From a phage, in the sequence record PZ151149.1: a stretch of DNA of 64,000 bases, one strand, 5' to 3'. The notes under the pieces were generated by a model. It had not been told where the DNA came from. It saw only the letters and a program-made list of their open reading frames with translations, and did not search any database. A program made the translations under genes and the position numbers. Each line of letters begins with the position of its first letter. Within the stretch, counting starts at the first letter, position 1. Shown one piece after another: positions 2,276-62,206 of this stretch.

Positions 2276-2466
2276 AGATGACTCCAATATAATCGACATT
2301 TACATTTAGGGCAATGCGGTTCTTTAATATAATACCCGTCTGTCTTTGGAACACTAACAGGAGCGGTTTTTATATTGTATTCAGTGAAACAACGAAAACA
2401 AGTTACGTTTTCTACAGACTGACGTTTCACCCAATCACCGGAATATAGATCATTTTTATTTGTCAT
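2272..2466 (-). CDS. zinc-ribbon small protein
   Basis: CxxC (CFRC) and CPKCKC pairs; start at internal Met MTNKND. Confidence 0.45.
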   Translation of the reverse strand: MTNKNDLYSGDWVKRQSVENVTCFRCFTEYNIKTAPVSVPKTDGYYIKEPHCPKCKCRLYWSHL

Positions 2467-2926
2467 ATTCAACCACCACAATATTGATATCTGGAGTAGC
2501 AATATTAATGATCTCTTCTACACATTCCCACTCAAGGCCACCGATACCGCAACCGATTTTAGGAATATAGAAAGGCTGTATAGCACCTTCAAAAACATCA
2601 TTGATAGTCTCAAATCCTTTCAGGATAGCACCATATTCAGCATTTGGACCCGGTCGGAATTGGGTATAGAGATTAACCCCGCACCAGTTATAACCATTAA
2701 CTTGATGCGTCCAGACACTAAACCCACCCAGCTTTTCTACCTTACCGCGAGAAGTTTGCTTGTCAATCTCTAACGCTTGTGGGAACTCTTTCGCGATCTT
2801 CGCAGCAATACCAGCGCCCATAGTATGAAAACAATTACAACCATGAATTAAATGACCGTTTCCTTGTTTAAACAGGGCGATGAGATCGCCCTTTACAGTA
2901 TCAATAATCATAATATAAACCTCCAA
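2456..2926 (-). CDS. macro-domain protein (ADP-ribose binding/processing family)
   Basis: Motifs HGCNCFHTMGAGIAAKI (cf. NAANxxLxGGGVxxAI) and IPKIGCGIGG (cf. FPAISTGIYG); GGAGG 7 nt upstream of ATG. Confidence 0.6.
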   Translation of the reverse strand: MEVYIMIIDTVKGDLIALFKQGNGHLIHGCNCFHTMGAGIAAKIAKEFPQALEIDKQTSRGKVEKLGGFSVWTHQVNGYNWCGVNLYTQFRPGPNAEYGAILKGFETINDVFEGAIQPFYIPKIGCGIGGLEWECVEEIINIATPDINIVVVEYDK

Positions 2927-50503: not shown

Positions 50504-50768
50504 AGGTTGCAAGCCTATATTCTATTGGGAGCGAAAATAGATACACACAACAAACAATTCCACCAATTTTCGTAGTAACTGCATGGCAAAGGGACCAATG
50601 AATGAAATGAGCGTTCATGTTGATATTGGGTCGGATAGATTTGGTAGATATACAAATCTGGTGTATGCCGACCTTGTTATGACACTCCAGCGTGACGCTA
50701 GCGGTAATTTTTGGTTTTGGTACGCTGTTCCCTGAATTAACCACAAATTCTCCATAAGGAGGAAATGC

Positions 50769-51004: not shown

Positions 51005-52246
51005 ATGACTCATATTTTTACTGAACTGTTGCGGGAATCTACTTCCTCAGTAGCTAACCAGACAGCGCGACCGCAACTATTATCATTAACTCGCGCGGTA
51101 AACAACCTGATTTTCTCTGATCTGGTAGCAATCCAGCCAACGGATCAACCAGTATCTGCATTGTACGGCCTACGTTATCTTAACCGTGATGGTCAGATGA
51201 CTTTCCGAACTGCTACAACCTATGGTGGCGCGGCTGGTGATCGCACAGAGATTGAAGAGTTTTCAAAAGAAAAATCTTATAACGAAGGCGCACTATTCAA
51301 ATCAGACGATGTTGTATACGAAGTTGTGACCGCTGGTACAGTCGGTGAAGATGCCGAAACTCCAGAAGCTGCAATCTTTAAAGGCATAATGACAAACAAA
51401 ATTCGTTTCTATAGCGATTGTGCATCGGTAGAATACTTTGAAGATAAAAACACCGAAATTTCGTCTACCTCTATGCAGTTTGATAAATGGCAGGTTAATG
51501 TAGGTTCTCGTAAACTGAAAACCTCATTCACGACCGAATTGATGCAGGATCTTGAGGCAAGCCAAATCAACTCTGAAAACTCTGTAATTGATCTTCTGGC
51601 TACTGTTGCTTCCGAAGAGATCAACAAAGATATTATTCAGAAGTTGATCACTGTATCATCTCGCTATAAAATTAAAGGGATCACCCCTGATGGCGTACTT
51701 TCTCTCGTTAGCGTTCAGGATGCACCAACACAAGCGCGTGAACTTTACCGCTATGCTTGCGAAATGAGCAATCAAATGTTGCGGACTTCCTCCTTTGCTG
51801 GTACATACGTTTTGGCGTCTTCTCGCGTGGTTGGCCTCCTGCAATCTACCGGATGGATGGAAGAAACCGACAATGCTCTAAGCGAAGGTCGTCTACGTTG
51901 CGGTCTGGAAGTGTACGCAGACACGACAACACCTTTCGATTATATGCTCGTTGGTTGTAAGCACATGATCGGTGATATGGAGAGTGTAGGTTCTCTGTTC
52001 TACTCCCCATATACAGAAGCCGACGGCGCTGGCGCGTATAAGAGTGTAATTGACCCTAATAGCTTCCAGCATCATGTAGCTATTATGAATCGTTATTCAC
52101 TCTCTGTCAACCCATATACATCAAAAGTTGATCAGGAAGAACACCAGGTCATCAAGGGTGACGATTGGGGTAAAATGGCTGGACGTTCAGAAATGTCCTA
52201 CATTTTAGGAATCGAACTGCCACCGCTTGAGATTGACAACGCTTAA
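51005..52246 (+). CDS. 24: capsid vertex protein gp24
   Basis: ELLRESTSS...RPQLLSLTRAVNNLIFSDLVAIQPTDQPV matches recalled T4 gp24; ATG 51005 preferred over TTG 50957. Confidence 0.9.
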   Translation: MTHIFTELLRESTSSVANQTARPQLLSLTRAVNNLIFSDLVAIQPTDQPVSALYGLRYLNRDGQMTFRTATTYGGAAGDRTEIEEFSKEKSYNEGALFKSDDVVYEVVTAGTVGEDAETPEAAIFKGIMTNKIRFYSDCASVEYFEDKNTEISSTSMQFDKWQVNVGSRKLKTSFTTELMQDLEASQINSENSVIDLLATVASEEINKDIIQKLITVSSRYKIKGITPDGVLSLVSVQDAPTQARELYRYACEMSNQMLRTSSFAGTYVLASSRVVGLLQSTGWMEETDNALSEGRLRCGLEVYADTTTPFDYMLVGCKHMIGDMESVGSLFYSPYTEADGAGAYKSVIDPNSFQHHVAIMNRYSLSVNPYTSKVDQEEHQVIKGDDWGKMAGRSEMSYILGIELPPLEIDNA

Positions 52247-52567
52247 CTAAATATCTAACCAAGACAAGTCAGATCCGCCCAAGATTTTTTCGACGGCGGA
52301 TCTATTTTCTTGATGATATAAGTTAAAACATGGTATCCCATGTCTACGGGCAACATAAACAGCAATTCTAGTTCCTCCCGAAACGATTCCATTAACTTCT
52401 TTCGCCCAAAATAACACACAATCTACAGGATCATCAAGTGTCTCACCTAAGACTTGAGCAACATTTCTAGAAAACAGATTTTGCATGTATAACGGTATAG
52501 AACGAGGATTATCATAAACGTGTTCTAATTCATCCATCGCCAGATTTTTTGTTCTAAGGTTTGCCAT
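52247..52567 (-). CDS. DprA/SLOG-like Rossmann-fold protein, C-terminal segment
   Basis: SRN...SGGTRIAVYVARRHGIPCF resembles the C-terminal DprA/Smf motifs. Confidence 0.55.
   Translation of the reverse strand: MANLRTKNLAMDELEHVYDNPRSIPLYMQNLFSRNVAQVLGETLDDPVDCVLFWAKEVNGIVSGGTRIAVYVARRHGIPCFNLYHQENRSAVEKILGGSDLSWLDI
52270..52304. terminator. hairpin between convergent genes (possible bidirectional terminator)
   Basis: AGATCCGCC...GGCGGATCT 9-bp stem with 15-nt loop, T-rich after. Confidence 0.4.
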
Positions 52568-52833
52568 GCAATAACATCATGACCGTTATGCTTGTGGTCA
52601 TAAAACTTCCAATTTGGAATGAAAATTTTTCTATAATCTGGATCGTAATACTTCATGAAAGCATTGTCCATACCGTAAGCCCCTCCAGAATGCGCTACAA
52701 CGCGATTTTCTGACAATACCCTCCCAATGGTACTAGCCATTATCAAAATGTCGCTAGGCGCTTTTCTAGAGCCTATTAAAGCACATCTACGAAGTGGTTT
52801 TACTCCAAATAGATCTTGTAACTGGTCAAACAT
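52525..52833 (-). CDS. DprA/SLOG-like Rossmann-fold protein, N-terminal segment
   Basis: ALIGSRKAP and VVAHSGGAYGMD resemble DprA GSR and SGxAxGxD motifs; GGAGG RBS. Confidence 0.55.
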   Translation of the reverse strand: MFDQLQDLFGVKPLRRCALIGSRKAPSDILIMASTIGRVLSENRVVAHSGGAYGMDNAFMKYYDPDYRKIFIPNWKFYDHKHNGHDVIAWQTLEQKIWRWMN

Positions 52834-52959
52834 AATATTTCCTCCATAGAAAGCAATATCATACTACAAGTTAATAACAAATACAAGTATCCGCGTAGCG
52901 GAAGCGAGCACAGCGAGCAATAAAACACTTCCAGTAATTGATTAATAAATGTTCGAAAC

Positions 52960-53011
52960 AAATTTTTATTATTCTATAAGATAAGTCTTCGTTTTGATCA
53001 TAATTTAATCA
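52960..53011. repeat. intergenic repeat element, copy C
   Basis: CGAAACAAATTTT plus TCTTCGTTTTGATCATAATTTAATCA shared with copies at 16151 and 53135. Confidence 0.5.
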
Positions 53012-53110
53012 TACATGTAAAAACTACACAAAAGGATATCGCTTCGCGAACTCCTACGGAGTATAACATTTGTGTTACAATATGTAGTGAGTAATAATTA
53101 ACCAAAGATA

Positions 53111-53160
53111 CATTTTCTATGTTCTAAAGATCTTTCTTCGTTTTGATCATAATTTAATCA
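53111..53160. repeat. intergenic repeat element, copy B (contains palindrome AAAGATCTTT)
   Basis: 35 nt near-identical to 16158..16192, then 26 nt identical to 52986..53011. Confidence 0.6.
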
Positions 53161-53246
53161 AACAGTATTAATATTGTGCACATGTAAACTAAAATTATGT
53201 TAATAACATATACAAAAAAGCCGCCCAGAAGGACGGCTAATGTTAA

Positions 53247-60348: not shown

Positions 60349-61119
60349 ATGAATATTATCCGAATAAAACTACCGGAAGGTGTGCAGAGATTTAAACCAT
60401 TCACGGTAAAAGATTATAGAGATTTCCTTCTGGTGTCAACTGAAATTAAGATGAATCCAGAAGAAGAACAAACGATTCTGGATGAGCTATTAGAAGAAAT
60501 ATATCCAGACGTAGATCCGGCATTTCGTGAATATATTTTCCTGAATGTCTTTACTAGTTCAATTGGTAAAACTAAGATACCGCTTTGTTTTACTTGCCCG
60601 ACTTGCAACAAAGAAAGAAAAATGTTGCTTAACTTACAGGTTGAAGCACTAAAACCAATCGTTCTAGAGGCCGCAGGGCTTAAAATAACTTTCCGGTATG
60701 TTAAACCATCAACCGACTATGCAAAAACGTTTCTGGATGCGATAGAGCGTGTATCTGATGGTGTTAATGATTATCTATGGACTGAATTACCGGAAGAAGT
60801 TAGAGAACAGGTTATAGATTCAATCTCATTTGCTGAATTTGAAGAAGTTGTTAAGCAGATGCACACAATCAAGATCGAACAAAAGATATCTTGTTGTGAA
60901 AGTCATGACCTGAAATACATAGGTCTTCTTCCATTATTCAAATTGTTGTTGAATCCAGATGAGTTATTCATCTTTTATCGAATAAACCATCTATTGGCAA
61001 AATCAAATTATTCTATCAGTGATCTTATGGACATGTTACCCGTCGAGAGAAACATTGCACTGACACTGGTCGAGAAAGACGTAAAAGAGGCAAACAATGC
61101 AAAGAACGGGGTTTCCTAA
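60349..61119 (+). CDS. 51: baseplate hub assembly catalyst gp51
   Basis: 256 aa, T4 order and size. Confidence 0.8.
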   Translation: MNIIRIKLPEGVQRFKPFTVKDYRDFLLVSTEIKMNPEEEQTILDELLEEIYPDVDPAFREYIFLNVFTSSIGKTKIPLCFTCPTCNKERKMLLNLQVEALKPIVLEAAGLKITFRYVKPSTDYAKTFLDAIERVSDGVNDYLWTELPEEVREQVIDSISFAEFEEVVKQMHTIKIEQKISCCESHDLKYIGLLPLFKLLLNPDELFIFYRINHLLAKSNYSISDLMDMLPVERNIALTLVEKDVKEANNAKNGVS

Positions 61120-62206
61120 TGTCTCAATAAAACTTTATCAGGATTATGAGGCATTTCTAAATCATCGCTTTATAGAATTGGGTGCTACCTTTGTTACAAT
61201 GACTCTGCGTGATTCGATTCGTGGGGTGAACGAAGGATTGTTGCAATTCTATGATAATAAGGCGATGCATACAAAATTAAATGGACGAGAGATCATTCAG
61301 ATTTCGCTATCCACTGCTAATACAGATGAAGTGTTTAACCGAATCTATGGGATCTCTCATAGTAATGTAACGATTGACCAAAAATCTGACAACATTTTAA
61401 CATTCCAGTTAAAGAGCTATCACGAAACACTAAACCTTAAATTTTCTCGCTCATTAACAAATAACGCTGTTAATAACGTAACTAGCATGATCGATGCCAT
61501 CTATAAGGAAGTTCCTTTATGGAAACCTACTATAAAGGGTGATAACGTTGTTATTCCTCGTTGTCCGTGGGTTAGTACCATAAATGACTATATGGATTTT
61601 GTTAGGGCATACGGGCAAAGCGTAGAAACCGAGTCTTTCGTGTATTGCTGGGAAGATTTTGATGGTATAACGATCGCTGGACACGATACAATATTAAAAA
61701 ATGAGCCAATACCAGCTATAATCTGTGAGCCTAGACTCATGGGGCAATTTATTGATATGTCGCCTAATCTGATGGTTTTTAATTTCGAGTGGCAGACTAA
61801 GAGCAATGCTAAAGTTAAAAATTCATTTAGCAATGTGACATACACAACTATTGATTTTGTTACTAAGCAGTATAATAAAATTGTTGTTGGTAATGGGGAT
61901 AATATTGCACACTTTGCTCATGGTGGCGCTTATGGTAATTTAACTTATAAGAATGCGTTTTTGGAAGGTTCTAAACTTGCCACAATAGAACAATATGATT
62001 CATATGCTACCGCAGTGTGTCACGGTAATTTTTCGTTGCGACCCGGTATTGTTATTCGATTCTTTGATGAGAAGCAACAAGCACGCAATGATTTTATTGT
62101 TGACGAAGTGGTGCATGAAATTAGCCGAGAGCAATCATTAACTCACCTGTATATGATCGGTAACAGCGAAGAATTACAGGAAGTCAAATTTGAAGGTAAG
62201 ATATAA
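61097..62206 (+). CDS. 27: baseplate hub subunit gp27
   Basis: N-terminus MQRTGFPNVSIKLYQDY...LQFYDNK matches recalled T4 gp27. Confidence 0.9.
   Translation: MQRTGFPNVSIKLYQDYEAFLNHRFIELGATFVTMTLRDSIRGVNEGLLQFYDNKAMHTKLNGREIIQISLSTANTDEVFNRIYGISHSNVTIDQKSDNILTFQLKSYHETLNLKFSRSLTNNAVNNVTSMIDAIYKEVPLWKPTIKGDNVVIPRCPWVSTINDYMDFVRAYGQSVETESFVYCWEDFDGITIAGHDTILKNEPIPAIICEPRLMGQFIDMSPNLMVFNFEWQTKSNAKVKNSFSNVTYTTIDFVTKQYNKIVVGNGDNIAHFAHGGAYGNLTYKNAFLEGSKLATIEQYDSYATAVCHGNFSLRPGIVIRFFDEKQQARNDFIVDEVVHEISREQSLTHLYMIGNSEELQEVKFEGKI

Follow-up and report, generated by a model that had tools for sequence, protein, structure and literature searches.

Results

Two overlapping reading frames and one missing base

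Two minus-strand ORFs overlap by 43 nt in different frames at positions 52,247 to 52,833 of a 64,000-nt stretch of phage DNA (PZ151149.1; hereafter the window), which raises the question of whether this locus encodes two proteins, one protein made by slippage, or one gene that has been broken. The first-pass annotation had described both ORFs (52833..52525 and 52567..52247), which are present as it reported, and had placed an A6 tract in their overlap where a one-base change would fuse the frames. Inspection of the coding strand (GAA CAA AAA ATC) confirms that lengthening A6 to A7 yields a single ORF of 195 aa, with the refinement that fusion needs the gain of one base, as a -1 slip of the ribosome would provide. 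The features of the locus are as follows.

52525..52833, minus strand: upstream ORF, 102 aa, comprising native residues 1-96 and 6 out-of-frame residues
52247..52567, minus strand: downstream ORF, 106 aa, comprising native residues 97-195 from codon AAT at 52546..52544
52545..52550, minus strand: A6 run (T6 on the plus strand), site of the one-base deletion, from alignments and an indel census
52841..52845, minus strand: Shine-Dalgarno sequence GGAGG, 7 nt upstream of the ATG at 52833..52831, read from the sequence
53219..53238, minus strand: intrinsic-terminator-like hairpin of 8 bp, 6 of them GC, followed by a T run, 3' of the upstream 145-aa gene
51005..52246, plus strand: gene 24 (capsid vertex protein), convergent with the DprA-like gene

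The gene is intact in related phages

The window derives from a Krischvirus, that is, from the RB49/JSE/Phi1 group of T4-like coliphages; it is ~97.5% identical to genomes of this group over 24 kb and matches no record exactly. An intact 588-nt gene encoding 195 aa is carried by 58 of 59 GenBank Krischvirus records, whereas the corresponding stretch of the window spans 587 nt, a length shared among the 59 records by phage Whisky alone. Alignment with the relatives places the missing base in the A run, where they read either CAA AAA AAT (A7, encoding Q95-K96-N97) or the synonymous CAA AAG AAT (AAAAGAA). With one A added, the 195-aa ORF is 100% identical to a protein (P0176) present on 67 public contigs.

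The named counterparts of this gene are RB49p164 and EpJSE_00169 (NP_891735.1, YP_002922241.1), which RefSeq calls 'DprA-like DNA recombination-mediator protein'. These genes and their orthologues are 96-99.5% identical to the window at the DNA level, occupy the same slot convergent with gene 24, and encode the same 195 aa once the A is restored. They differ from it in carrying an unsplit A7 gene where the window carries a split A6 gene, and Whisky alone in GenBank shares the split. At 40-70% identity, more distant homologues likewise each consist of one uninterrupted ORF of about 190 aa, and one of them occupies the same slot in a more distant T4-like phage; two separate ORFs with conserved independent starts were not found among the relatives. 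Since relatives and distant homologues alike are intact, intactness is the ancestral state, from which the window departs by a -1 deletion. The locus has the makings of a homopolymer frameshift pseudogene, namely a one-base length change and two halves that are both colinear with the intact protein.

The first-pass annotation had also likened the slot to the one that holds rnlB in T4, and gene order agrees. T4 reads 24, rnlB (minus strand), 24.2, 24.3, hoc, while the window and JSE read 24, the DprA-like gene (minus strand), a 145-aa gene, a DUF2774/24.3-like gene, hoc, which places both genes between gene 24 and 24.2/24.3/hoc. T4 RnlB (RNA ligase 2) thus matches the DprA-like gene in position and orientation; orthology to RnlB or to an RNA ligase was rejected, as the proteins lack similarity (BLASTP E=4.8). 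The label 'putative RNA ligase' in phage Skers (MW748999.1, 25261..25848) was apparently given by position. In JEP8 (MT764208.1, 12364..12789) a 141-aa product is annotated; this record was considered as a second inactivating allele and dismissed, since the full 195-aa ORF is intact and the annotation reflects an internal start call. Several orthologue records add a spurious 53-aa ORF over the gene start. The neighbouring 145-aa, DUF2774 and 65-aa genes provide no functional clue.

Upstream of the DprA-like gene lies a 413-nt non-coding gap (52834..53246), with a second GC hairpin at 52902..52890. Given the terminator-like hairpin at 53219..53238, the gene probably has its own promoter within 52834..53218; a sigma-70 scan returned no convincing promoter for it. 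An Rfam scan of the flanks gave nothing real, and the sub-threshold matches to Ysr49 and SorY (about 21 bits) that overlap the terminator probably reflect merely the hairpin. At the other end the stop codons abut (TAA at 52244..52246 for gene 24, TAG at 52247..52249 for the DprA-like gene) with no terminator between them, and a plus-strand terminator-like hairpin lies within the end of gene 24 (52181..52198).

The intact protein is a SLOG-superfamily domain

Profile searches assign both halves to one family. Over its whole length the fused sequence aligns with PHROG 768 ('DprA-like'; E=2e-60), the upstream ORF matching positions 4-88 (E=1e-22) and the downstream ORF positions 89-181 (E=2e-32). 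Because the halves match adjoining stretches of one profile, their arrangement reflects a split gene and not chance. The motifs picked out in the first-pass annotation are all present, with GSR at residues 21-23, SGGAYGMD at 49-56, SRN at 122-124, SGGTRIA at 152-158 and GIP at 166-168, and they fall on columns that are invariant in 29 family members. The invariant residues comprise G21, S22, R23, S49, G50, A52, G54 and D56 in the first half and R123, N124, Q127, G153, G154, T155 and A158 in the second.

An AlphaFold model built on a 29-sequence alignment is confident (pLDDT 94.3, pTM 0.90); it represents an orthologue that shares 93% identity with the fused sequence. In the model the protein folds as a single three-layer alpha/beta Rossmannoid domain, and SLOG members are its closest neighbours in structure. 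Ligand-binding loops of SLOG domains, which are polar or rich in glycine, come after strand 1, strand 2 (GxD/E) and strand 4; the corresponding invariant motifs here follow the strands at residues 16-21, 46-49 and 139-143. We conclude that the intact protein is a bona fide SLOG-superfamily domain, nearest the Rossmannoid core of DprA, and not a DprA orthologue.

Membership of the DprA/Smf family proper was rejected on both scores and architecture. Against Pfam DNA_processg_A the fused protein reaches 22.3 bits, below the gathering score of 29.6, over residues 15-60 only (46 residues); the upstream ORF alone reaches 23.4 bits, likewise below 29.6, and the downstream ORF alone has no Pfam match. 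The NCBIfam dprA equivalog scores 14.4 bits against a cut-off of 191. Searched against the PDB, the family profile finds Helicobacter pylori DprA (E=1.5e-4) through its N-terminal 50 residues only, whereas a profile of the C-terminal half finds nothing meaningful and has no detectable sequence similarity to DprA. In contrast to bacterial DprA/Smf (PF02481, TIGR00732; 3MAJ, 4LJK, 3UQZ), the phage protein is a single domain of 195 aa that lacks both the N-terminal SAM and the C-terminal DML1/winged-helix domains and has no further Pfam domain. Of the first-pass label 'DprA/SLOG-like', the superfamily part stands on fold and loops, while the DprA/Smf part falls below the family thresholds.

The arginines with which DprA contacts its ligand were compared as well. 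H. pylori DprA binds ssDNA through R52, R143 and R170 (PMC12961424). In the phage family R23 (GSR) and R123 (RN) are invariant and R156 (GGTR) is common, with a spacing similar to that of the H. pylori arginines; the first arginine alone is backed by sequence alignment, as the C-terminal half does not align.

Other SLOG members were compared as well, including the ThsA SLOG domain (7UXS), LOG (9US2, 5WQ3), YpsA (2NX2) and the Moco carrier protein (2IZ5). Assignment to the LOG family was rejected, since its catalytic PGGxGTxxE motif is absent and the corresponding SGGTRIAV lacks the Glu; the PDB profile match to LOG is marginal (E=0.08), and Pfam returns no match to the LOG (Lysine_decarbox), YpsA or YAcAr families. 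Similarity in PADLOC to ShosA (8ZVA) and PsyrA, antitoxins of anti-phage toxin-antitoxin systems, is very weak and confined to the N-terminus, and the phage protein has neither their SAM domain nor an adjacent toxin gene. That the phage protein acts as an antitoxin mimic is pure speculation.

The deletion would abolish a functional product

The whole locus is probably explained as a Krischvirus RB49p164/JSE_00169 orthologue with a one-base deletion in the A7 run at codons 95-97. The deletion would have arisen through homopolymer strand slippage during replication, by the Streisinger mechanism. Frameshift hot spots of this type are known at A runs of the T4 rII and lysozyme genes, where one-base changes likewise recur independently in short homopolymers of T4-type phage genes; those hot spots come from mutant screens, whereas the A6 allele comes from natural isolates and assemblies.

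Translation from the strong Shine-Dalgarno sequence and ATG at 52833 runs through 96 native residues, shifts frame, and ends at the premature TAG (52527..52525) that is read in the sequence. The domain is thereby cut between an N-terminal half, strands b1-b3 with the GSR and SGGAxGxD motifs, and a C-terminal half, strands b4-b5 with the invariant RN..Q and GGT..A residues. In the model, a break after strand 3 removes the helix at 96-103, the RN..Q helix, strands 4-5 and the GGT loop. The downstream ORF holds the RN..Q helix, b4, GGT..A and b5, and inspection of its sequence reveals no Shine-Dalgarno sequence before its own ATG at 52567. As half a Rossmannoid domain would not be expected to fold and the downstream ORF lacks a ribosome-binding site, A6 would in effect be a null allele of an accessory gene that the phage can do without, and the 102-aa product should be non-functional.

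The A6 allele recurs on different haplotypes

The A6 run could be either a real allele or an error of homopolymer length. The exact 102-aa truncated product is encoded on 7 other contigs from 7 samples (Whisky and six Logan SRA assemblies), all seven of which carry A6 and four of which exceed 50 kb with intact flanking genes. Compared with each other, the A6 alleles are separated by 2-10 SNPs in the gene itself and by 15-115 differences per 3.3 kb. That is to say, A6 contigs differ among themselves as much as they do from intact JSE, and one (L014) matches JSE in all but the deletion. On either side of the indel, 27 nt upstream and 117 nt downstream, the four-gamete test is violated, and the identical A6 allele is present on at least 8 haplotypes. 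Occurrence of the same allele on different haplotypes suggests that a mutation-prone run has shifted frame more than once, and argues against a one-off sequencing error. Repeated loss of a base from a prone A7 run is the simplest reading of this recurrence; a single A6 origin is also possible, with the allele then passed between lineages by the recombination that is common among T4-like phages.

All indels between the window and JSE were listed to examine the wider pattern. Roughly two dozen are uncompensated one-base indels, almost all of them intergenic or at the extreme ends of small genes; alone among them, the indel at 52545 (JSE 101720) cuts a conserved protein short within its domain. 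Because these one-base indels lie mostly outside coding sequence, they follow the pattern of real evolution instead of that of random homopolymer miscalls.

Three of the listed differences fall towards the ends of genes. At ~12552 (JSE 62501) the window has C4 and JSE C5 in the last codons of a dmd homologue (discriminator of mRNA degradation), where C4 would alter the C-terminal residues. A small plus-strand ORF between genes 23 and 24 (50583..50735), homologous to EpJSE_00166 (52 aa), has T5 at 50708 where JSE has T4, giving a 50-aa product with a different C-terminus. At ~4807 (JSE 54125), close to the 3' end of a small hypothetical gene homologous to EpJSE_00098, the T run goes from T8 to T7, a further length polymorphism of a homopolymer.

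One further difference affects a larger gene. The gp27-like baseplate hub gene of the window (61097..62206, plus strand) is a single ORF of about 372 aa with A5 at 61817, whereas JSE has A6 there and two overlapping annotated 'baseplate hub' genes (JSE 110201..110935 and 110910..111311). JSE probably carries a frameshift or a homopolymer error in this gene, and its split indicates that homopolymer length, real or miscalled, easily splits genes in this group.

The chief rival to a real allele is a sequencing or assembly artefact, in which the true run is A7 and was undercalled by one base here and possibly in the other assemblies. Homopolymer length errors are the commonest indel error, the hub gene offers the reverse case with JSE at A6 and the window at A5, and A6 occurs in only 1 of the 59 GenBank records. 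Against this, six SRA runs and Whisky independently assembled the same allele on long contigs with intact neighbours, and the other one-base indels of the window spare coding sequence, which the errors of a poor consensus would strike as often as its genomic share predicts. An A7 run is also short for a consensus-level error on accurate short-read platforms. We therefore regard an artefact as unlikely and a genuine hot-spot frameshift at the A run as the likely state of affairs.

Intact variants remain the commoner form, with at least 358 contigs among the cluster members listed versus 7 with the truncated product. Gapped DNA pattern searches of IMG/VR and JGI metagenomes recovered three contigs, all intact, a number too small to give a frequency. 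A search of the literature on Krischvirus frameshifts found nothing relevant.

Slippage, switching and a two-piece protein

The first-pass annotation had listed a mutated gene and slippage-dependent expression among its options; the former is favoured by the recurrent A6 allele and the latter finds no support. Programmed frameshifting was rejected. The out-of-frame layout is not conserved, with the related records in frame (58 of 59) and the distant homologues single ORFs, and the zero-frame codons CAA AAA AUC contain no X XXY YYZ heptamer. RNA structure was not detected downstream of the run, where 88 nt fold like shuffled sequences (z=+0.51), and some lineages have broken up the run by a synonymous G (AAAAGAA). 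Slippage by RNA polymerase finds a run of 6 nt, below the homopolymer criterion of at least 9; six A's are short for it. A rare -1 slip of tRNA-Lys on A-AAA-AAU would nonetheless restore the exact wild-type protein, as would one A added by RNA polymerase. The sequence on which either might act is

CAAAAAAUC

and leaky full-length expression from it is conceivable as an incidental, not a programmed, outcome.

It is also worth weighing whether the A run serves as a contingency on/off switch, such that some hosts repeatedly select for phages without the SLOG protein, as they might where the protein triggers a defence system, and slippage both reverts the loss and permits low-level expression. At least 8 haplotypes, drawn from across the genus, carry the same frameshift, no other type of inactivating lesion was seen among the sequences examined, the -1 slip on A-AAA-AAU would give back exactly the wild-type sequence, and homologues are linked to conflict-type domains (PMC9503650). 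The off state is rare, however (1 of 59 GenBank records; 7 contigs versus at least 358 intact), AAAAGAA has replaced the run in some lineages without consequence, and neither a canonical zero-frame heptamer nor a stimulatory structure is present. Recurrence is moreover accounted for without selection by a high mutation rate of the run together with plaque-purification bottlenecks. On balance we consider a switch improbable. The fuller version, in which A7 is a contingency locus whose protein counters one ADP-ribose- or ssDNA-based defence, is sensed by another, and is switched off and back on, is likewise improbable; if true, it would account for the identical frameshift on many haplotypes.

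More remote still is a functional two-piece protein, in which a reinitiated C-terminal fragment joins the N-terminal one: an in-frame ATG (Met of MDELEH) does lie in the overlap 9 nt upstream of the premature TAG, gene callers predict a downstream product of 96 or 106 aa, and the model puts the break in a loop and not within a strand or helix, but neither candidate start is preceded by a Shine-Dalgarno sequence, no relative conserves a split layout with independent starts, and split Rossmannoid domains rarely complement without selection.

Likely function of the intact protein

The family of the intact protein was surveyed by an exhaustive profile search, which returned 4341 representative clusters, 2744 of them at E<=1e-10. 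Members are mostly stand-alone proteins of about 180 aa, and structural homologues are spread across many phages. Ten longer homologues were examined for fusions. Five are fused to NADAR, two of these being giant proteins that also contain YAcAr and LDcluster4 SLOG domains; one is fused to DUF4326, one to RecJ, and the remaining three have no other Pfam domain.

Iyer et al. 2022 described viral SLOG domains with their fusions to Macro and NADAR, as well as DUF4326, and predicted that such domains sense or cleave ADP-ribose-derived immune signals (PMC9503650). The NADAR and DUF4326 fusions found here fit that prediction, and the first-pass suggestion of a signal sponge or processing enzyme is essentially this published hypothesis (PMC9503650). 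Macro and SLOG domains are also reported to co-occur in phage genomes (PMC9503650). In the window a Tk.4 homologue lies at ~2457..2912 on the minus strand, by correspondence to JSE tk.4 (51773..52228), and JSE Tk.4 is annotated with an A1pp (macro-domain) phosphatase motif.

The intact protein most likely binds a phosphate-bearing nucleotide ligand via its GSR, GxD and GGT loops. With moderate-to-low confidence, our leading guess is a sensor or processing enzyme for an ADP-ribose-derived molecule that figures in phage-host conflict. The alternative is a DprA-like role on single-stranded DNA, suggested by DprA as the nearest fold, the conserved R23, R123 and R156, the RecJ fusion, and a parallel with ShosA, a DprA-like antitoxin that works via ssDNA and RecA (PMC12961424). 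The NADAR and RecJ fusions are contextual signals that point different ways. We would give the nucleotide/ADP-ribose reading roughly half of the weight and the ssDNA reading roughly a third, leaving the rest to something else.

Discussion

The first-pass interpretation of this locus is supported: the two ORFs are an ordinary frameshifted allele of an already annotated phage gene and do not represent a new expression mechanism. The sole mildly unexpected result is the occurrence of the same allele on many haplotypes in independent datasets. For annotation, the pair should be recorded as one frameshifted RB49p164 orthologue; the label RNA ligase, or an entry as a pair of hypothetical proteins, is to be avoided. 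Phages can evidently do without this gene, whose A7 run is prone to repeated frameshifting among natural Krischvirus isolates, such that natural knock-outs are available for probing a widespread phage SLOG/DprA-like family. Given the size of this family and the fusion of some members to NADAR or DUF4326, it may reasonably be proposed as one of the counter-measures that phages are predicted to direct at ADP-ribose-derived immune signals.
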